Below, piece by piece: positions 5,054 through 29,792 of a stretch of DNA of 50,144 nucleotides. The translations under genes were made by a program, and so were the position numbers. The notes under the pieces were generated by a model, which saw nothing but the letters and a program-made list of their open reading frames with translations, did not search any database and was not told the origin of the DNA. The first letter of the stretch is position 1. The number at the start of each line of letters is the position of its first letter. Source of the DNA: Patescibacteria group bacterium (GTDB lineage: Bacteria; Patescibacteriota; Minisyncoccia; Phycocordibacterales; VMEP01); contig JBBTQM010000016.1 in assembly GCA_038065675.1 (NCBI GenBank), forward strand, positions 1 through 50,144, written 5' to 3'.

Positions 5054-6629
5054 ATGAGCCGTTTATTGAGGTCGTTGGGCGTTATTGCATTTATCTTTAT
5101 CGTCACCGCGTGTGGCGGCGGTGGCGGCGGGAATACGTCTCCCGCACCTGTCTCTGCCCCGCCGGCAACGTACAGTATTTCTGGCACTGCCGCTCCAGGC
5201 GCCACAATCGCCGCGAGCGGGTCGGCGACAGCAAGTGCGATCGCCGCGGCGCAGACGGGACATTCAGTTTGTCCGGTCTCGCTAACGGCGCCTACACCGT
5301 CACGCCGTCGCTCACGGGATATTCATTTACCCCGACGAGCATGGCGAAAACGGTGAATGGTGCAAATGTGACCGGGGTGAATTTCACCGCTACGGCAAAT
5401 CCCGTCGTCCCGCCGACTAAGTACACTATTTCCGGCAAGGTGAGCGGTGGGGCTGGCATAATCGTCACCTTAAGCCCCAGTGGTGCGACGGTGACGACTG
5501 GTACGGACGGGAGTTACGAGTTCTCTGTGGTAAACGGGGGCTATACCGTCACTGCTCCGGGCGCAACCCCAGTCTCTGTAACGGTGAATGGAGCAAATGA
5601 AACGGGTATAAACATCGCGACGCCCATGCCAATCACCACTTCGTTGCCAGCCGGTTATGTGGTTCAGGGCGGGCTGACCTGGATGCCGGTGACCTTCATT
5701 GTGCCGGTAACCTTCGGTTCGACTTTCTGGGCGGATGCTAATGCTTATTGCACCAATACCACCATCAATGGACAGACCGGTTGGCGCATGCCGACCAAAG
5801 ATGAGTTGTTGAGCCTAGCCAATTCCGGGGCGTTGAACGCGGTGAACGGCCAGTGGGTCTGGTACTACGTCTGGTCGTCTACGCCCTATCCAACGGGCGG
5901 TTACTACGTCGTTTACTTGGATCCCACCAGGATATTCAACGGCACCGTCGATGTGGGCAGGGACGCCAACTATGTGTCGTGTGTCCACCCCGGTATTGTC
6001 CCCGCCCCACTGGCATCAGCGCTACTGTTGGCAACGGGCAAGTCACCGTCAGTTGGAATGCAGTTACGGGAGCGACCTCTTACAACCTTTACAGGGCATC
6101 GATCTCCGGTATCACCAAGAGCAACTACAGTTCATTAACCGGTGGAGTAAAGGTTGCCGGAGTTACCTCTCCATACATCCAAACCAGCTTGGCCAATAGC
6201 ACGACCTACTATTTTGTGGTGACGGCGGTCAATGCCAACGGAGAGAGTAACGAATCGAATCAGGTCTCGGCAACACCGCAGGTTGCTCCGTTGCCAGCAG
6301 GTTATGTGATTCAGGGCGGCCTGATCTGGATGCCGGTAACGTTAAACTTCAACTGGGCGGATGCCAATGCCTATTGCACCAATACCACCATTAACGGCCG
6401 AGCTGGCTGGCGTCTACCGACGCTAACCGAAGCATATGCCTTTTCTGCATCGTTTTTTTCCATCGGGGGGTTTCGCAATTCGTTGTGGACGTCACCCTAC
6501 ATGCCCTACATCTGGACGTCGACACCCGCTAGTGTTGGGAGCCACTACTTCGCCGATATCGTCATCGGCGTTGGCGGCAGTTTCGATGCGCGCGACGTGA
6601 ACCAATTCGGAGTGACGTGTGTCCTTTAG
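5054..6629 (+). pseudogene. Multidomain surface lipoprotein (CarboxypepD_reg-like repeats, DUF1566, FN3, DUF1566) broken by two frameshifts
   Basis: Three overlapping ORFs (5054, 5110 and 5853 in the track) read as one protein. It starts with a lipobox signal (FIFIVTAC), then YSISGTAAPGATI.../ADGTFSLSGLANGAYTVTPSLTGYSF beta-sandwich repeats. Next come WADANAYCTNTTINGQTGWRMPTKDEL (DUF1566-like), PTGISATVGNGQVTVSWNAVTGATSYNLYRA...YYFVVTAVNANGES (FN3) and a second DUF1566-like domain. The frame changes near 5235-5250 and in a C-run region near 5985-6005. Confidence 0.75.
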
Positions 6630-6743
6630 AGCCTTGGTCTGTGGAATCTCTTCATTGAGCCTTTAGGTATCGATGGAATGGGTGCAGTAGTCTTCGGCCC
6701 TGCCGGATTCTAGCTCGCTTGATTGAGTTTGTAGTAATTAAGT

Positions 6744-6770
6744 GGCCATCGCGAAAGCGGTGGCCTTTTT
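6744..6770 (+). terminator. Intrinsic terminator
   Basis: GGCCATCGC, loop GAAA, GCGGTGGCC (one G-U), then TTTTT. Confidence 0.75.
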
Positions 6771-6772
6771 GT

Positions 6773-6801
6773 TTGACTTTGGATATTTTTTATGATATAA
6801 T
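6773..6801 (+). promoter_or_regulatory. Near-consensus sigma70 promoter with extended -10
   Basis: TTGACT (6773-6778), 17-nt spacer, TGaTATAAT (6793-6801). Confidence 0.7.
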
Positions 6802-6902
6802 TAAATAAGTTAATTCCTATTCGTATGGATAGGTCATTCCGAAAGGGATAAGAGGGAAGCTTCTAACCCTGAATTAGAAGCGTTCGTTGAAAGGATCAAG
6901 AT

Positions 6903-7220
6903 ATGTCCATCGTTTGGGAAGATTGGTCTCAAGTCGTGAATGGACCTTCCAAGTTCGACCTGATGGTGTCGTTGTTCGAATCTACGACACAGGCATTACA
7001 GCCGCGTCGAACCACGGAGTTCCAGGTGAAGCACAAGGACAAACCATCAACCATTCATCTGAAAGTTGCCGTTTCCCTTATACAGCGTGAAGATGGGTCA
7101 GGAGAGTCCTGGAACTTTGAAGGATACGCTCTTCCCTCGGGCAAGAGATTAAAAGGTTATTACTCTACCCGGACCAGAAAGGGCACCGTCAAATTCCACG
7201 ATAACGGACCGCTCGTATAA
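6903..7220 (+). CDS. Hypothetical protein (105 aa)
   Basis: Intact ORF between a consensus promoter and a terminator, with an AAAGGA RBS-like element 8 nt upstream. No motif I recognise. Confidence 0.6.
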   Translation: MSIVWEDWSQVVNGPSKFDLMVSLFESTTQALQPRRTTEFQVKHKDKPSTIHLKVAVSLIQREDGSGESWNFEGYALPSGKRLKGYYSTRTRKGTVKFHDNGPLV

Positions 7221-14839: not shown

Positions 14840-15071
14840 AAAATTAACGAGCGAATAATATGAGCGACTATAATTTACTTAACCCCCCACCAAATTTACT
14901 AAAAAATATGAAACTGAAATTAAAAATAGGATTAAGCGAATATACCAAAGGCGCCACTGGCCCGGATAGGGCCGGGCTATTCGCCCGCGTGGCGCCGAGT
15001 ATTATTACTGGTAAATTTGGTGGGGGGTCATTATTTTCTAAAATCTCGCTTGCGCTCGCTTAAGAAAATAT
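14840..15071. repeat. Compound-hairpin intergenic repeat, copy 3
   Basis: Arms ACCCCCCACCAAATTTAC (14882-14899) / GTAAATTTGGTGGGGGGT (15010-15027) enclose 110 nt with an inner hairpin GGCGCCAC...GTGGCGCC. The outer flanks are homologous to copy 2. Confidence 0.75.
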
Positions 15072-15617
15072 ATGAAAACAAAATCGGTACAAGAAAAAAA
15101 TAAGGAAGCCCTCGTCCATTTGAAAGGCAAGTTTCACTATAAAAACGTGATGCAGGCGCCGCGTTTGGTTAAGGTTGCCGTTTCCTCAGGCACCGGCTCT
15201 CAAATAAAGAAAGACAAAAAGAGAAACGAATTCATCGCGGAGCGATTGTCCAAAATCACCGGCCAAAAAGCTTCTCCTCGCGGAGCCAAAAAAGCCATCG
15301 CAACATTTAAGACGCGCCAGAACGATGTTATCGGAGCCACGGTTACTCTACGCGGCAAACGCATGTTTCTTTTCTTGGATAAGTTTTTGAATGTAGCTCT
15401 TCCGCGCACGAAAGACTTCAAGGGAATCGCCCGCACTGCTGTTGATGAAATGGGTAATTTGACTATAGGAATAAAAGAGCACACGATTTTCCCGGAAACC
15501 GCCGATGAAGATTTGAAGGATGTTTTCGGTTTGGCTATCACTATCGTTACGACAGCGAAAGGCAAAGATGAAGCCACGGCGTTTCTGGAATATATAGGGG
15601 TTCCGTTTAAGAAATAA
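15072..15617 (+). CDS. rplE: 50S ribosomal protein L5
   Basis: 181 aa, L5 core, operon position. Confidence 0.95.
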   Translation: MKTKSVQEKNKEALVHLKGKFHYKNVMQAPRLVKVAVSSGTGSQIKKDKKRNEFIAERLSKITGQKASPRGAKKAIATFKTRQNDVIGATVTLRGKRMFLFLDKFLNVALPRTKDFKGIARTAVDEMGNLTIGIKEHTIFPETADEDLKDVFGLAITIVTTAKGKDEATAFLEYIGVPFKK

Positions 15618-15680
15618 AGCCAAAGCGAGGGGTTTTTCGAGGTTTGACACTATTTTTTGTAGTGGTAGTCTTTTACATAC

Positions 15681-16706
15681 ATGGATAAAAAAACTCTTAT
15701 ACAGCAGATAGAAAAATTAAGGGGTTCTCGTGTTATTACTTATGTAACTAGTGACCGGCCTGGGCCTATAAACGCCCGTGTCGCTATGGATATTATTCCG
15801 CTTGTAAGCGCGCAGCTTCGCAAAATAGGAAAGGTGCCGAAAATAGATTTGTTTCTATATAGCGCAGGGGGAGATACCATGGTTCCGTGGCGGCTTGTAT
15901 CTATGATTAGAGAATATTGTAATACGTTCTCCGTACTTATTCCTTACAAAGCCCACAGTTCGGCAACTATGATTGCTCTCGGTGCCGATGAAGTCGTAAT
16001 GAGTGATTTGTCAGAAATTTCACCAATTGACCCCTCCACTGCTAATATTTTTAATCCATCCGACCAAACCAATCCACAAAATAAAATACCAATTTCTGTT
16101 GAAGATGTTATAGCATATTTTGACTTGGCAAAAAATAAATTTGGTATAAAAAATGACGAAGACTTGACCAAGATATTCAATAAATTTGTGGAGTCAAACC
16201 CCCAAATTCACCCTCTCGCTCTCGGTAATGTGAATCGTACACATAATCTTATTCGCCTTTTGGCGAAACGGCTTTTGAAGAGCCATCAAAAGCCAATACA
16301 CGATGACGAAATAAAGAAAATCGTGGAATATTTTACTGAAACACTATACTCGCACCAGTATTTTGTCGGCAGAAAAGAAGCAAAAGAGGATCTTGGTCTA
16401 AAATTTGTGATTGATGCTGACAAGAATCTCTCAGATCTTATGACAGACCTTTATGAAAAGTATGCCGAAGAGATAGGATTAGGTAAGCAGTGGAATCCAG
16501 AAGGCGAAATTGGAATGAATAATGCTTCGGTGCAGAAAGAATACAGAATTGCTTATGTAGGAAGTTCAGACGTTGAAAATTACTACAGTATCTCAATGGA
16601 GTTTCGCAGACAGCAGGTTAATATGGTTCAACAAACTTCTCAGGGTCCAATCCAAATTCCACAAGAGCAGGTTGGTTTTAGAATAATTGAGCAGGGGTGG
16701 AAGTAA
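15681..16706 (+). CDS. ClpP-fold serine protease of the SDH ('serine dehydrogenase proteinase', S49-like) type with an unassigned helical C-terminal half
   Basis: The N-terminal third (ITYVTSDR, DLFLYSAGGDTMVPWRLVSMIREY, IPYKAHSSATMIALGADEVVM, ISPIDPS) matches my recollection of the SDH/ClpP-class peptidase signature. The remaining 200 aa or so are unassigned. Visibly AT-richer than its neighbours. Confidence 0.7.
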   Translation: MDKKTLIQQIEKLRGSRVITYVTSDRPGPINARVAMDIIPLVSAQLRKIGKVPKIDLFLYSAGGDTMVPWRLVSMIREYCNTFSVLIPYKAHSSATMIALGADEVVMSDLSEISPIDPSTANIFNPSDQTNPQNKIPISVEDVIAYFDLAKNKFGIKNDEDLTKIFNKFVESNPQIHPLALGNVNRTHNLIRLLAKRLLKSHQKPIHDDEIKKIVEYFTETLYSHQYFVGRKEAKEDLGLKFVIDADKNLSDLMTDLYEKYAEEIGLGKQWNPEGEIGMNNASVQKEYRIAYVGSSDVENYYSISMEFRRQQVNMVQQTSQGPIQIPQEQVGFRIIEQGWK

Positions 16707-16710
16707 AATT

Positions 16711-17301
16711 ATGGCTAATTATATTAAAATATTTTTAGGATTTTTTAATGACAACCTTGGTGTTGTTACTCTTATAGCTGGAGCTTTTGCTCTTTTTCTT
16801 TATAAAAGACAACAAAGAGATTATAAAAAGGATGCTGCGAGTTTAATTTTGCAAGAAATTAGATATGCAGAACAACAAATTAGAACTGCTAGACAAAATG
16901 GTGACAGTTATTCGTTGGCTTCAAAATTATTACCTACAAATAGTTGGAATGATAAAATTCATCTTTTTGTAAAAGACTTGGAAGAGAATCAAATTGATAT
17001 GATTAATACTTTTTATGCAAAAGCAAAATACATTGATATTCTTATTTTGAAACGCTCGGATCAATTAACAGGACCCCATACACAGCAAAACCAGTTCTCT
17101 CCTGCATCAATTCCCGTGCCCCAAAACCCAGGACAATTGAATCAGTTTGTACAAGTTACCTTGCCTATTCCCCCTTCCCCAGAAAGCGTCACAATTGGGC
17201 TTTTAAAACAAGTTTCGTCTAGTGTTGAGTTTATTTACAATACCCCAGTTGTAGAAAAATTAAGAAAGATATCAAATAAAAAATGGTGGCACCTTTTTTA
17301 G
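16711..17301 (+). CDS. Membrane-anchored hypothetical protein (196 aa), partner of the protease
   Basis: Start taken at the ATG at 16711 (MANYIKIFLGFFNDNLGVVTLIAGAFALFLY), 4 nt after the protease stop, with GGGGTGGAAG upstream. One N-terminal TM helix, a helical domain and a Q/P-rich segment. Confidence 0.65.
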   Translation: MANYIKIFLGFFNDNLGVVTLIAGAFALFLYKRQQRDYKKDAASLILQEIRYAEQQIRTARQNGDSYSLASKLLPTNSWNDKIHLFVKDLEENQIDMINTFYAKAKYIDILILKRSDQLTGPHTQQNQFSPASIPVPQNPGQLNQFVQVTLPIPPSPESVTIGLLKQVSSSVEFIYNTPVVEKLRKISNKKWWHLF

Positions 17302-17339
17302 GTTAGATTAAAAATCTGATTATTCCAACGAATTTTAGT

Positions 17340-17368
17340 TTGACACCCCCGCTCCCCTCATATATACT
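17340..17368 (+). promoter_or_regulatory. Outward sigma70-like promoter re-driving rpsN and downstream genes
   Basis: TTGACA (17340-17345), 17-nt spacer, TATACT (17363-17368). Confidence 0.6.
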
Positions 17369-17574
17369 CCCCTTAGCTCTTAAGGAGCTATTTTCATTTC
17401 CCCGCTTAATCCGCCCGCCTCCTTTTCCGCTTAAATTAAGCCGAAAAGAATTCGGGCGAGATATTGGCGGAATGAGTTTATAGTTATTAGTTTTGAGTTC
17501 TTAGTTTGGGGGCAGGGGGTACCCGTTCCAGGATTTTAACTAAAAACTAACTGCTAAAAACTAGAAACTATCCA

Positions 17575-17760
17575 ATGGCAAAAACTTCAACAAAAGTAAG
17601 GTCATCCAGGCCGCCTAAATTCAAAAGCCGTGTGGTACGGCGTTGTTTTAAGTGCGGCCGCAAGCGCGGATACATGCGCGACTTTGACCTATGCCGCATT
17701 TGTTTCCGCGAGCTTGCCAACGAAGGAATGATTCCGGGCATTAAGAAGTCATCATGGTAA
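17575..17760 (+). CDS. rpsN: 30S ribosomal protein S14, zinc-binding type Z
   Basis: 61 aa. [23 protein letters not shown] has two CxxC pairs. Confidence 0.95.
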
Positions 17761-22372: not shown

Positions 22373-22741
22373 ATGTTACCAAAAAGCAGTTACAATCTGG
22401 AGGATAGAACAGCTAAATTAGGGGAAAATGTTATTAAATTTTGCAAAACCATAAAAGAAGATACTATAACCAAGCCGATTATAAGCCAACTAATACGTTC
22501 ATCCACAAGTATTGGCGCGAATTATATGGAGGCAAACGGGGCGAGTTCAAAAAAAGATTTCAGGAATAAAATATTTATATGTAAAAAAGAAGCGCAAGAA
22601 ACTAAACATTGGCTGAGGATGATAACAATATGTATTCCCGAACAGAAGGAGAAAATAGAAACTTTTTGGAAAGAATCTCAGGAACTAACGATGATTTTCC
22701 AAAAAATAACAAGCTCCCTGAAAAATACCGTTGAAAATTAA
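22373..22741 (+). CDS. Four-helix-bundle protein (23S rRNA intervening-sequence protein / Avd-like family)
   Basis: 122 aa. The signature ISQLIRSSTSIGANYMEANGASSKKDFRNKIFICKKEAQETKHWLRM matches my recollection of the TIGR02436-type family. Confidence 0.8.
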   Translation: MLPKSSYNLEDRTAKLGENVIKFCKTIKEDTITKPIISQLIRSSTSIGANYMEANGASSKKDFRNKIFICKKEAQETKHWLRMITICIPEQKEKIETFWKESQELTMIFQKITSSLKNTVEN

Positions 22742-27032: not shown

Positions 27033-29792
27033 ATGGATTTAATGTTCGCCGCCGGAGAGAAATTAAACAGCCTTGGAAAAGAGATGGCTTTTTTGCGTGA
27101 GAAGATGAAGGAGTCTGCCGGCAAATCGCAAGAAGCTCTTCGCGCAAACTTGGAATCCCATGCCGCGAAAGCTCTCGTAGACTACAGGGGAGCAAAAAAA
27201 GAAAACGTTATACCCGAAGAATACAAAATACCGGAAGAAAAAGAGAAAGGGATTGTTCTAAAGCTTTCTCCGGAGCCCCACGACGCAAAAATAGAGGAAC
27301 TTTTGGGGATATTGCTTGAACACGGAGTTAAAAACACGCTCGCGGTGCTCGAGAGGTTGAATGACCCCCATTTGGACGACGATTTCCACCGCTTTCTCGT
27401 CCAATATCTTTCTGTCGGCAATCCCGTCCCGGGCCTTTCAAAAGGCGGAGATGTTTTTCAGGGAGTAAACATGAAGCTTTACCGCATTGCCGTGCCGCGC
27501 GCAGGTGAAACGGTTAACATTCGTGAATTTATATCAAAAATGGAGCAGTTTTACGCGGGGATGCTTTACGTTTCCGATTCAAAAAAACCTGAACCGGGAA
27601 AAAATTATTTTACTTTGGAATTCGCCCTTCCGGCCGAGAGCCCCGAGCTCGCGCTTTACGCCGCCGTGGAGCGCGAAAGAGCTTCAATTTTTGAAAAACT
27701 GTTTCTGGCTTTTTATCCGGACGCGCGCCTTACGGAAACGACCGACGATTACAATGTATTCGTGGAAAACGGAGCTTCGCTCGGCGCCAAGGCGTCGCTT
27801 CTTGCAAGCGGAGTGTTTCCCATAAAAACGTACGGAGAATTTGAGCATGACCCGATGGAAGCCGTTCTCTCGGCATTCTCAAGAATCGCCAGAAAGGGCG
27901 AGGGCGCGGCGCTCCAACTTGTTGTCGCGCCGGCGGGAGATTCCCTAATAAAGCGTTACGGACAGGTATTGGGGGAACTTGACCGCGGGGTCCCCATCAA
28001 AGATGCCATACCTTCGGACAGTATTTTGGACGCGTTCGCCAAGATAGGCAAAGACCTTATTTCCGGGAGTAAAAAGAAAGAAACAATCAACACTCAAGTT
28101 GAAACCGCCAAAACGCGCATAAAAGAAAAAATCGCGAGCTCCATGTCGTACGCGAACATTCGTATCGCAGTTTCTTCCGGAACTGTGGAGAGAAGCAAGG
28201 AGATATTAGGGCAAATCGCGGCGGCGTTCAATCAATTGCGTCTGCCGGAAGGGAACGGAATTACTTTTGAAATTTGCGAAGGACGGAACGCGATTAAGCT
28301 TTTCCATGAATTTTCGTACCGGCTTTTTTCCGAGGGCGACGCCTTTCCTCTTAATTTGAAAGAACTGTCCACGATTTTGCATGTTCCCGGGGGGCAGAAT
28401 AGCGGCGGCGCGCAGATTCTTGAGGCGACCTGGAAAACGGCAAAAGCACCGGCTAATATCCCAATGAGCGGGACGGTTTTGGGAATAAATAGGCATCAGG
28501 ATGCCGCTACCGATGTCCGCATTTCAATTGAAGACCGAATGCGGCATCTCTACGTAATAGGCCAAACAGGAACCGGGAAAACGACACTTTTAAAACAGAT
28601 GATTATTCAGGATATTGAAGCGGGGCACGGAGTTTGCATGATAGACCCGCACGGCGCCGACGTTGAGGATATTTTGGCGCATATTCCGGAGTCGCGTATC
28701 GGAGACGTAATTTATTTTGACCCGAGCGACACGGAACGCCCAATGGGGCTTAACATGCTTGAATACGACCCGCGCTATCCGGAGCAAAAAACATTTCTGG
28801 TCAACGAACTTCTCTCAATTTTCAACAAGCTTTTTGACATGAAAGTCGCCGGCGGCCCGGCTTTTGAGCAGTATTTCAGGAACTCCGCGTTCCTAGTCAT
28901 GGATGACCCGGAATCGGGGAATACCCTTCTGGATATTGCCCGCGTTCTATCCGACAAAGAGTTTCGGGCCATGAAGCTTTCGCGGACGAAAAACCCTCTC
29001 GTCGCACAATTCTGGCAAAACGCCGAGAAAACAACCGGAGAGCAGGGGCTTGCCAATTTCGTGCCGTATATAACCAATAAATTTGACGTGTTCCTTTCAA
29101 ATGATGTTATGCGGCCGATTGTGTCGCAGGAACATTCGGCGTTCTCTTTTCGCGACATAATGGACCAGAAAAAAATTCTTTTGGTTAACCTTTCCAAGGG
29201 ACGTCTTGGCGACATAAATTCAAGTCTTTTGGGTCTCATTATTGTCGGTAAATTTTCCATTGCCGCTCTTTCGCGCGCCGACATGGTTTCCATGGGGAAG
29301 AAACCGGAAGATTTTTTCCTTTACATAGACGAATTTCAGAATGTAACCACCGATTCAATAACGACAATTTTTTCCGAAGCGCGGAAATATAACTTATCGC
29401 TCACAGTCGCGCATCAATACATTGCCCAACTTCCGGAGAATATAAAGCAATCGGTTTTCGGCAACGTTGGCTCGCGCGCCGTTTTCCGCGTCGGCCAGGA
29501 GGACGCGGAATTTTTGGAAAGGCAATTTCTGCCTATTTTTAGCGCTAAAGATATTGTCAGTCTTTCAAACAGAAACGCGTACGTTAAACTTCTGGTGAAC
29601 GGAGAACCCGCGGCGCCTTTCAGTATGGAAACAATAATTTTTCCTCCGGGAGACGCGGCGCGGGCGATGAAAATTCGCGACATCTCGCGCGCTAAATACG
29701 GGAAGCCGCGCGCCGAGGTTGAAGCGGCTATCGCCGCCAAGTTTAAGAAAAACCCACAACCCACAATCCACAATCCGCAACTTGCAACATAA
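27033..29792 (+). CDS. Large P-loop ATPase with VirD4/TraD (type IV coupling protein, HerA/FtsK superfamily)-like C-terminal half
   Basis: 919 aa. Walker A VIGQTGTGKTT, then CMIDPHGADVEDIL and YFDPSDTERPMGLNMLE. Walker B-like FFLYIDEFQNV. Also SEARKYNLSLTVAHQYIAQL. The N-terminal 480 aa or so are unassigned. Confidence 0.8.
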   Translation: MDLMFAAGEKLNSLGKEMAFLREKMKESAGKSQEALRANLESHAAKALVDYRGAKKENVIPEEYKIPEEKEKGIVLKLSPEPHDAKIEELLGILLEHGVKNTLAVLERLNDPHLDDDFHRFLVQYLSVGNPVPGLSKGGDVFQGVNMKLYRIAVPRAGETVNIREFISKMEQFYAGMLYVSDSKKPEPGKNYFTLEFALPAESPELALYAAVERERASIFEKLFLAFYPDARLTETTDDYNVFVENGASLGAKASLLASGVFPIKTYGEFEHDPMEAVLSAFSRIARKGEGAALQLVVAPAGDSLIKRYGQVLGELDRGVPIKDAIPSDSILDAFAKIGKDLISGSKKKETINTQVETAKTRIKEKIASSMSYANIRIAVSSGTVERSKEILGQIAAAFNQLRLPEGNGITFEICEGRNAIKLFHEFSYRLFSEGDAFPLNLKELSTILHVPGGQNSGGAQILEATWKTAKAPANIPMSGTVLGINRHQDAATDVRISIEDRMRHLYVIGQTGTGKTTLLKQMIIQDIEAGHGVCMIDPHGADVEDILAHIPESRIGDVIYFDPSDTERPMGLNMLEYDPRYPEQKTFLVNELLSIFNKLFDMKVAGGPAFEQYFRNSAFLVMDDPESGNTLLDIARVLSDKEFRAMKLSRTKNPLVAQFWQNAEKTTGEQGLANFVPYITNKFDVFLSNDVMRPIVSQEHSAFSFRDIMDQKKILLVNLSKGRLGDINSSLLGLIIVGKFSIAALSRADMVSMGKKPEDFFLYIDEFQNVTTDSITTIFSEARKYNLSLTVAHQYIAQLPENIKQSVFGNVGSRAVFRVGQEDAEFLERQFLPIFSAKDIVSLSNRNAYVKLLVNGEPAAPFSMETIIFPPGDAARAMKIRDISRAKYGKPRAEVEAAIAAKFKKNPQPTIHNPQLAT

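Follow-up and report, generated by a model that had tools for sequence, protein, structure and literature searches.

An AT-rich cassette encoding a predicted SDH-type ClpP-fold protease and a putative membrane partner between rplE and rpsN of a Patescibacteria genome

A contig of 50,144 nucleotides from a Patescibacteria group bacterium (JBBTQM010000016.1; this whole stretch is called the window below) represents part of the ribosomal-protein super-operon of a Patescibacteria (candidate phyla radiation, CPR) genome. Between its genes rplE and rpsN lie two co-directional open reading frames (ORFs), the only ones located there, which we call ORF-A and ORF-B. In this work we examine what the two genes encode, how they are placed at this junction and where their relatives occur, and we compare several explanations of their role. 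We will show that the block containing them is an insertion, and we will argue, tentatively, that it is a horizontally acquired conflict cassette in which a protease is combined with a membrane partner.

An insertion at the rplE-rpsN junction

The positions of the features are collected in Table 1. The guanine-plus-cytosine (GC) content is 0.32-0.39 inside the block, compared with about 0.45-0.51 in the flanks. By gene, it amounts to 0.39 for ORF-A and 0.33 for ORF-B, with 0.47 for the remaining window, and the block lies 0.08-0.15 under the host value. Composition and gene calls agree with an earlier reading of this DNA, made from the letters alone (the sequence-only reading), which had described an AT-rich block, carrying two closely coupled genes, that separates rplE from rpsN. 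The identical arrangement of rplE, ORF-A, ORF-B and rpsN is found in ERZ1292626, ERZ1292629, ERR3858116 and ERR3858118, which stem from the same groundwater population. Since these are at least four independent assemblies or sequencing runs, the block is real, and an assembly chimera can be ruled out.

In order to compare the junction, 80 contigs encoding the closest rplE relatives (60-69% identical) were considered, on 50 of which rpsN was also found. The two genes had been assumed to abut normally, but in none of these 50 relatives is the distance between them near zero. The baseline gap is about 100-300 nucleotides (nt), typically about 180 nt. The short gaps are all alike in content: rplE is followed immediately by a strong promoter, TTGAC[T/A]-N17-TAGTAT, and then by some 110 nt of conserved leader, which reaches the rpsN ATG. 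Furthermore, gaps of 460-3460 nt with unrelated cargo are seen in 22 of the 50 (among the cargo-bearing loci are L079, L081, L085, L088, L091, L095, L097, L106, L118 and L138). Among the cargo are pilin-like (GFTLIELLVV) proteins, which are accompanied by a small membrane protein, as well as an AAA ATPase, a reverse transcriptase, HicAB and a cytidine-deaminase-like gene. The cargo is always located upstream of the rpsN promoter and leader. The rplE-rpsN junction is an operon boundary and a general landing site that has repeatedly received accessory genes in this lineage.

The protease gene encoded by ORF-A is absent from all 80 contigs with rplE relatives. Conversely, neither rplE nor rpsN lies near the protease in any of 68 other protease-encoding loci, which were surveyed in species-representative genomes from many Patescibacteria classes. 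As the protease is found at none of the relatives' junctions and none of the other protease loci is near rplE or rpsN, the block is foreign to this junction. It is an insertion there, and its absence from the junctions of relatives, together with its low GC content, bears out the foreign origin that had been supposed.

The 9-bp direct repeat GTTTGACAC occurs just twice in the 50-kb window (0.34 occurrences expected), and its two copies bracket ORF-A and ORF-B. The −35 of the native rpsN promoter in the relatives (TTTGAC[T/A]) occupies the position of the left copy, just after rplE. The pair may represent a target duplication or a microhomology at the insertion point. Because both copies overlap −35 boxes, however, the match is suggestive and does not amount to proof. 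An empty site in a close relative, at which a target duplication could be checked, was not found, the nearest rplE relatives being only 60-69% identical. The sequence-only reading had instead placed a degenerate copy of the rplE 3' end at 17425-17442, at the right border of the block. This segment is in fact the palindromic apical hairpin of the covarying rpsN leader (see below), and the repeat that brackets the block is the 9-mer. We also considered an autonomous mobile element, such as an insertion sequence or an integrative element. A search for terminal inverted repeats of the insert gave nothing convincing and no transposase, integrase or recombinase is encoded within the block, neither ORF being a recombinase, so that the block does not qualify as one. 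Serine recombinases are found nearby in just some of the other loci.

The promoter-like element in front of ORF-A, previously described as weak, is present, but it is missing from the list returned by a consensus promoter scan, and its second hexamer matches at only 3 of 6 positions. It is important to compare it with the other members of the family. Upstream of the protease ATG, a −10-like box ending 6-12 nt before the start codon is found in 39 of 67 loci, often preceded by TTGAAAAATTA, while a Shine-Dalgarno-like motif is found in 2 of the 67. The nearly leaderless mRNA that had been proposed for the window would thus be a property of the whole protease family and not of the window alone.

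Table 1. Features in and around the block (positions in the window)
Feature	Position	Strand	Remarks
rplE	15072-15617		upstream border of the block
Direct repeat GTTTGACAC, left copy	15642-15650	+	9 bp; 25 nt after the rplE stop; contains the −35-like TTGACA
Promoter-like TTGACA-16-TAGTCT	15644-15671	+	ends 9 nt before the ORF-A ATG; without Shine-Dalgarno sequence
ORF-A	15681-16706	+	341 residues; predicted SDH-family ClpP-fold serine protease, cytoplasmic
Ribosome-binding site GGGGTGGAAG	upstream of the ORF-B start	+	predicted, for ORF-B
ORF-B	16711-17301	+	196 residues; predicted single-pass membrane protein; starts 4 nt after the ORF-A stop
Direct repeat GTTTGACAC, right copy	17338-17346	+	9 bp; overlaps the −35 of the rpsN promoter
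Native rpsN promoter TTGACA-17-TATACT	17340-17368	+	11/12 consensus positions, best match of the region; kept downstream of the insert
rpsN leader RNA	17370-17574, core 17401-17470	+	conserved, predicted structured RNA
Terminator-like hairpin TAGCTCTTAAGGAGCTA with T-run	17374-17399	+	very start of the rpsN leader
rpsN (short form)	17575-17760		downstream border of the block

The protease, its partners and their distribution

ORF-A passes the Pfam model PF01972 (SDH_protease) with 51.2 bits, compared with a gathering cut-off of 31.3 (E=1.2e-13), its residues 3-142 being aligned to model positions 37-181. The cut-off of the NCBIfam model NF047768 (Clp_like_SDH) is missed (60.5 vs 250 bits, model positions 24-167 of 260), and ORF-A appears to be a relative of that family and not an equivalog member. 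The Peptidase_S49 and CLP_protease Pfam models gave no match to ORF-A at E<=1. The previous assignment to an SDH/S49-type peptidase holds, therefore, for the SDH family and for the ClpP fold discussed next, but not for the S49 model.

An alignment of ORF-A with 80 homologues, down to 33% identity, shows that G63, G64, S93, G182, R186 and H225 are invariant and that D117, E141 and D142 are nearly so. The order of these residues agrees with the Ser-Asp-His arrangement that defines the family. The AlphaFold2 model of ORF-A has a mean predicted local distance difference test score (pLDDT) of 94.4 and a predicted template modelling score (pTM) of 0.91. With Foldseek, it is matched to SppA, ClpP and NfeD 1510-N with a probability of 1.00 over about 250-290 columns, and better matches are given by giant-virus proteins annotated as "serine dehydrogenase proteinases" (E=3e-11 to 1e-9). 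The ClpP fold spans about 270 of the 341 residues, and the additional part, residues ~283-340, is modelled as a three-stranded beta-hairpin sheet. The sequence-only reading had confined the protease domain to the N-terminal third, followed by some 200 residues of unassigned helical sequence. That division has to be abandoned, given the extent of the fold and the invariant His225, which lies within the supposedly unassigned part.

No hydrophobic segment, transmembrane helix or signal peptide is seen in ORF-A (maximum KD19 0.92). A single-sequence search of the Protein Data Bank (PDB) with ORF-A returned no solved relative, while a profile search gave NfeD 1510-N as the best match (E=1.4e-4, residues 36-128) and ClpP as the next, the other matches to the SppA and ClpP families being weak (E=0.008-0.6). 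We found no solved structure of an SDH-family protease, and no described mechanism in the literature. The profile and structure predictions that had been suggested as checks of the protease have thus given PF01972 and ClpP-fold matches. On these grounds, ORF-A can be described as a predicted SDH-type ClpP-fold serine protease without an ATPase domain, which is probably catalytically active.

ORF-B has 193 homologues with 43-62% identity, and Pfam recognises no domain in it or in the 53 homologues tested. The predicted structure (AlphaFold2, pLDDT 87) is a helical bundle in which an N-terminal hydrophobic helix runs into a long helix. A disordered linker of variable length, rich in proline and glutamine (P/Q), covers residues ~121-156, with 40% P+Q over 119-158. 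Conserved parts are the core LILQEIRYAEQQIR / LLPTNSWN and the C-terminal helices with EFIYNTPxVEKLRKIS. The 4-nt distance to ORF-A, the single hydrophobic helix and the P/Q-rich region are all as described earlier. Neither a significant fold match nor a sequence match to ORF-B was found in the PDB. There is one Lys or Arg before the hydrophobic helix and there are five among the 15 residues after it. According to the positive-inside rule, the N-terminus would be outside and the bulk of the protein, including the linker, in the cytoplasm, on the same side as the protease.

We now consider how widely the protease is distributed. Its homologues form more than 1888 clusters, and the best 120 of them, from many Patescibacteria lineages, are 73-81% identical to ORF-A and nearly all exactly 341 residues long. 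Among representatives at 50% identity, 3148 are found at E<1e-3 and 427 at E<1e-30 (35-48% identical, 320-420 residues), and the 341-residue clade collapses to one cluster in this set. In the 68 surveyed loci, the protease sits in differing genomic places, and the median identity within the clade is 76%. In the same genome pairs, the median identity of the protease is 72% compared with 62% for DnaK (protease higher in 14 of 15 pairs), 72% compared with 39% for GrpE (21 of 21), and 82% compared with 52% for RadC (19 of 21). Over the genome-pair comparisons, the protease medians range from 72 to 84%. The GC content of the protease gene correlates with that of the host (r=0.70). As the protease is more conserved than its housekeeping neighbours, occupies varied positions and tracks the GC content of its host, it appears to have spread horizontally within the phylum under very strong purifying selection. 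The GC deficit in the window is among the largest seen for protease loci, which suggests that the cassette arrived there comparatively recently.

Turning to the pairing of the two genes, an ORF-B-type gene is located directly downstream of the protease in 13 of the 68 protease-seeded loci. Look-ups on long contigs seeded with ORF-B gave a protease directly upstream in 4 of 4 cases, this being an SDH protease in three of them. The gap between the two genes is 2-6 nt, or they overlap. Altogether, ORF-B relatives lie directly behind a protease in 5 of 5 contexts, of which two (L165 and L172) have a proteasome-like protein instead. From the side of the protease, at least six alternative downstream partner sets take the same tightly coupled position. 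One consists of a DUF6941 protein (PF22091, E=1e-18) and a membrane protein of about 135 residues with a C-terminal anchor (L002, L007, L021, L024, L032 and L043). In others, a protein of about 228 residues is paired with a multi-pass membrane protein, or toxin-antitoxin-like pairs follow a protein of about 218 residues. A protein of about 230 residues and a tail-anchored protein of 96 residues occur in this position as well. The pairing is loose from the protease side and tight from the ORF-B side, and the downstream partner of the protease is exchangeable.

The proteasome-like protein belongs to a second family. At L165 (4072-4998), a 308-residue protein beginning with MSLAINTTTPEGMILAADSR is encoded directly upstream of an ORF-B-family gene, and at L172, which was seeded with a homologue of this protein, an ORF-B-family gene again follows directly downstream. 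Many homologues carry the Proteasome domain PF00227 in precomputed tables. The family comprises 1444 clusters across Patescibacteria, 70-92% identical and 307-308 residues long, and starts with MSLAINTTTPEGxxLAADSR. The members that were examined (L165, L166 and L167-L176) have variable downstream partners of their own, and their loci resemble those of the SDH protease, with arrangements such as RadC-PhD/ParE-[gene]-methyltransferase-ResIII and hrcA-grpE-[...]-dnaK. One of four proteasome-like loci lies in or next to hrcA-grpE-dnaK, namely L170, in which the gene is placed between grpE and dnaK. The same locus also holds a gene for a trypsin-like protease.

The neighbourhoods of the SDH protease are rich in genes of genetic conflict. 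A DNA methyltransferase is found within 6 kb in 26 of the 68 loci, and 37 loci have one or more genes of the restriction-modification, toxin-antitoxin, serine-recombinase, Bro-N, Fic or NYN type. The proximity to defence or mobile genes that the sequence-only reading had proposed to look for is seen in these 37. The ORF-B-seeded loci adjoin methylase/R.HinP1I/Vsr genes, GmrSD with an EcoRI-type methylase, and large serine recombinases. The housekeeping genes that recur beside the protease are hrcA-grpE-dnaK, ribonucleotide reductase, tpiA and radC, with 9 of the 68 loci in or next to hrcA-grpE-dnaK (L009, L016, L017, L022, L025, L029, L034, L042 and L043). Since such junctions often also hold methyltransferases or PIN toxins (L009, L029), the dnaK operon and similar places look like further landing sites. 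As a separate observation, a RadC (JAB) gene immediately precedes the protease in six loci (L001, L005, L007, L008, L013 and L050, at ~5280-7030). In these, the protease promoter overlaps the radC stop codon and the downstream partners differ. In L167 (2702-4924), the proteasome-like gene likewise has RadC a short distance upstream.

Relatives of the protease are also found in phages and prophages. Gordonia phage BeeGee encodes a distant full-length relative, gp31, between its tail genes and integrase, and in Porphyromonas phages a distant relative lies next to HicAB. The Escherichia coli homologue WP_044064371.1, annotated as "SDH family Clp fold serine proteinase", is 36% identical over 99% of the protein. 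Its gene is located on the opposite strand, between the Q antiterminator and the holin, in lambdoid prophages or phage-plasmids (L179:2229-3224 and L180:7001-7996), and 47 of 5426 complete E. coli genomes carry it. A solo copy also occurs on a Thermodesulfovibrionales contig. A profile scan of IMG/VR returned relatives on dozens of contigs, all of them distant, and no IMG/VR contig encoding a close one. The best PHROG for the protease is phrog_11747 (E=2e-38), which is of unknown function.

Possible roles of the cassette

The interpretation that we prefer, with a confidence somewhat short of even, is that the block is a horizontally acquired conflict cassette of about 1.7 kb, made up of a protease as its core and a membrane partner that depends on it. 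The cassette would serve in phage defence, by abortive infection, or in addiction. The cassette would have been inserted into the rpsN promoter region at the operon boundary. ORF-A would be expressed from a near-leaderless mRNA, and ORF-B would be translationally coupled to it. The protease would be the conserved core, and ORF-B one of several interchangeable membrane partners that depend on it. Most likely, ORF-B would be a substrate or effector whose activity is switched by cleavage in the P/Q-rich linker, which is disordered, predicted to be cytoplasmic and the obvious target. Less likely, it would be a membrane tether or a sensor for the protease. Proteolysis could act in either of two directions, by activating a membrane effector or by continuously removing a toxin. 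In favour of the preferred interpretation are the insertion itself, the signs of mobility and constraint, the conflict genes in the neighbourhoods and the close coupling to ORF-B. The strongest argument that ORF-B needs proteolysis, and not a specific structural partner, is the apparent exchange of the protease fold in front of the same membrane protein.

It is important to point out the results that weigh against this interpretation. The linkage as seen from ORF-B rests on just five distinct contexts. In the two that involve the second family, the proteasome-like assignment is weak, the 308-residue protein of L165 matching PF00227 at E=7e-4, which is below the cut-off, and a PDB profile search with the family reaching proteasome alpha subunits at E ~0.2. 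Co-diversification of the protease with its partners was examined with a negative outcome: proteases with the same partner are 76.3% identical, compared with 75.8% for those with different partners (permutation p=0.25), and the nearest neighbour of a protease has the same partner type in 7 of 37 cases. In the E. coli prophages, the protease occurs alone, and ORF-B may thus be dispensable for its function. The association with hrcA-grpE-dnaK could indicate a role in proteostasis instead. PADLOC returned no significant match for the protease, ORF-B, the proteasome-like protein or eight partner families, the exception being the toxin-antitoxin-like partner c40, which matches PDC-M44A. Finally, defence genes are not typically so highly conserved in sequence. 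Considering the alternative partner sets, the lack of co-diversification and the solo copies, this is not a fixed two-gene system. The two-gene module that had been proposed is a recurrent pairing, as the counts above demonstrate, but not an obligatory one.

The best of the alternatives, although a somewhat unlikely one, is that the protease acts autonomously as a single gene, for example in superinfection exclusion or abortive infection with a conserved host or phage protein as its target. ORF-B, perhaps a small membrane toxin or an immunity gene, would then stand next to it independently, at a site of cassette exchange. What keeps this explanation alive is the solo protease genes in E. coli prophages, to which the Thermodesulfovibrionales copy can be added. 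The six or more unrelated downstream gene sets and the missing co-diversification would also be accounted for, as would the fact that some of the downstream genes are stand-alone toxin-antitoxin pairs (PIN, and a TumA-like antitoxin, which is the one matching PDC-M44A). An independent neighbour would not, on the other hand, be expected to follow a protease of either fold in all five contexts, to be so tightly spaced, or to have its ribosome-binding site inside the protease gene, and tightly coupled small downstream ORFs are common in the phage copies too.

A role in proteostasis or membrane-protein quality control, as for SppA and NfeD, is decidedly unlikely. Here, a membrane-tethered peptidase would clear signal peptides or damaged membrane proteins, with ORF-B as its anchor or adaptor. 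The fold and profile similarity to SppA, ClpP and NfeD 1510-N is consistent with such a role, as are the very strong purifying selection, the partly ameliorated GC content and the location of 9 of 68 loci in or beside hrcA-grpE-dnaK, together with the proteasome-like gene of L170. However, the genomic positions vary between genomes, the Peptidase_S49 and CLP_protease models are not matched, and the partners are variable and mutually unrelated. The neighbours are restriction-modification, toxin-antitoxin and recombinase genes, and the relatives include prophage morons. The dnaK-operon junction itself, like that of rplE and rpsN, also holds methyltransferases and PIN toxins, which makes it look like another landing site.

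A directional variant of the preferred interpretation takes the cassette for an addiction module of the toxin-antitoxin kind: the protease would act as a proteolytic antitoxin and continuously degrade the membrane toxin ORF-B, which would be freed once the protease is lost or inhibited. Toxin-antitoxin loci typically have such a coupled order, with the neutraliser first and the toxin second, and such leaderless expression. Moreover, a generic protease need not co-evolve with exchangeable toxins, and many of the partners are small membrane proteins (families c2, c4, c19 and c20). We nevertheless consider the variant improbable, since a protease encoded alone would lack a toxin to act on and several partner sets start with a soluble protein (DUF6941, c9, c18 and c35).

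A remnant of prophage morphogenesis, with a ClpP/S49-type prohead protease and a scaffold-like protein, is very improbable and was rejected: weak matches to head-maturation proteases do exist (NF045542, E=1.6e-7; phrog_1684, E=2.7e-7), but no portal, terminase or capsid was recognised among the neighbour families that recur within 6 kb of the protease in the 68 loci, the best PHROG is by far the one of unknown function, no IMG/VR contig carries a close relative, and the phage copies lie at moron positions outside the head module.

It is instructive to compare the preferred conflict cassette with known systems. The nearest by name is FS_HP_SDH_sah. It reportedly goes back to Fillol-Salom et al. 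(Cell 2022), as an anti-phage system of two genes carried by phage-inducible chromosomal islands (PICIs). It would resemble the cassette in combining a PF01972 protein with a protein of unknown function on a mobile element. ORF-A matches the SDH_sah (PF01972) domain on which the system is defined. In contrast to the cassette, FS_HP_SDH_sah belongs to enterobacterial satellites and not to Patescibacteria, its HP gene apparently comes first, and the Patescibacteria clade has many alternative partners. A DNA search among E. coli for distant copies of the PICI gene returned solely the prophage allele. The model name is attested as a DefenseFinder system in PMC13532340, and the literature on defence by SDH or ClpP-like proteases that we searched contained nothing relevant beyond one mention of this name. 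The earlier statement that no characterised system has this pairing was consequently too strong, as DefenseFinder lists one on the same Pfam domain.

The pair of NfeD (1510-N, PH1510) and stomatin (PH1511) is similar in that the gene of a ClpP-fold serine protease lies next to that of a membrane-anchored protein, and the NfeD protease cleaves its operon partner stomatin. The logic proposed for the cassette would parallel, by analogy, this cleavage and the HP and SDH_sah system. NfeD 1510-N is, as given above, the closest solved protein to ORF-A by profile and is among the top fold matches. It differs, however, by having a Ser-Lys dyad, by being membrane-bound itself and by its C-terminal OB domain, whereas ORF-A has Ser93 and His225 and no transmembrane segment. 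Stomatin has an SPFH/Band-7 domain, and ORF-B has none according to Pfam and to the PDB fold and sequence searches. The likeness to NfeD and stomatin that had been noted is a true but distant relationship for the protease and an analogy for its partner. SppA (S49) and ClpP (S14) share with ORF-A the alpha/beta ClpP fold and a serine at the equivalent nucleophile position. ORF-A is distinguished from both by the absence of a match to their family models, by having no partner ATPase, by the order Ser...His, and by an extra helical insertion and the C-terminal beta-sheet.

Bacterial gasdermins are accompanied by an adjacent protease, which is caspase-, trypsin- or subtilisin-like. By analogy only, these modules are comparable to the cassette in having a protease with a membrane-acting neighbour, a cleavable linker and modular partners. 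They differ in the protease fold, and the fold search shows that ORF-B is not gasdermin-like. The SDH morons of phages (WP_044064371.1 and BeeGee gp31) are full-length homologues of ORF-A with the same domain layout at accessory positions, but unlike in the cassette the gene is solo or followed by unrelated small ORFs. What appears to be new here is the Patescibacteria-specific protease clade, its modular partner repertoire, the ORF-B family and the parallel proteasome-like family.

A more general proposal, which we regard as unlikely, is that Patescibacteria carry unrecognised, horizontally exchanged "protease-hub" conflict systems, in which either of two unrelated hub proteases of the self-compartmentalising type, an SDH or a proteasome-like one, would control shared, exchangeable membrane effectors by proteolysis. 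Both hubs would then be conserved beyond the level of DnaK and reside in near-leaderless cassettes, with the ORF-B family among the effectors, and the signature of such systems would be the non-orthologous replacement of the protease before the same effector.

Irrespective of that proposal, the cassette is an instance of a widespread and uncharacterised mobile protease module and not peculiar to one ribosomal operon. Proteases of the SDH family occur widely, both in Patescibacteria and in phages, prophages and giant viruses, and the family is uncharacterised. With a protease-linked membrane partner, an analogous second protease family and a tractable E. coli prophage homologue, the function is directly testable. 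Accessory cassettes are also seen to land at promoter-bearing junctions in the ribosomal-protein and chaperone operons of these tiny genomes.

The rpsN leader and other parts of the window

The native rpsN promoter and leader have been kept intact despite the insertion. The promoter is positionally homologous to the TTGAC(T/A)-N17-TAGTAT of the relatives. The leader folds as a long hairpin composed of GAUUAAUCCGCUUUUCUCCUU, a variable apical hairpin and AAGAAAAAAAGUGAGAUAUUAAC, with further examples in relatives such as L075:4560-4702, L096, L105 and L115. When 43 leaders are aligned, 18 pairs make up the consensus, and the majority of these are paired in at least 95% of the sequences, with three to six pair types each. 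The leader of the window shows the compensatory change CCGCCCG/CGGGCG where relatives have CCGCUUU/AAAGUG. A scan of the block with Rfam gave no match, the leader included. The element is thus a candidate for a well-supported and apparently undescribed ribosomal-protein leader. At its very start, the terminator-like hairpin takes the place of the 5' arm found in the leaders of relatives, and it may shield rpsN from transcription that runs on from the cassette.

Three further observations concern other parts of the window. Between rplX and rplE, at 14860-15063, there is an ORF of 67 residues without a Pfam match, which is also called in the other assemblies of the population. It may be spurious or encode a lineage-specific small protein. 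The super-operon contains another AT-rich insert (GC 0.31-0.34), which separates adk from map at 22373-22741 and encodes a 122-residue protein of the 23S_rRNA_IVP family (PF05635, E=4e-15). This family is often tied to mobile or diversity-generating elements. A few kilobases downstream of the ribosomal operon, at 27033-29792, a 919-residue protein with TraD/VirD4-type coupling motifs (T4SS-DNA_transf, TrwB_AAD_bind and TraG-D_C) is encoded, and similar proteins (cluster c31) are neighbours of the SDH protease in L010, L053 and L060.

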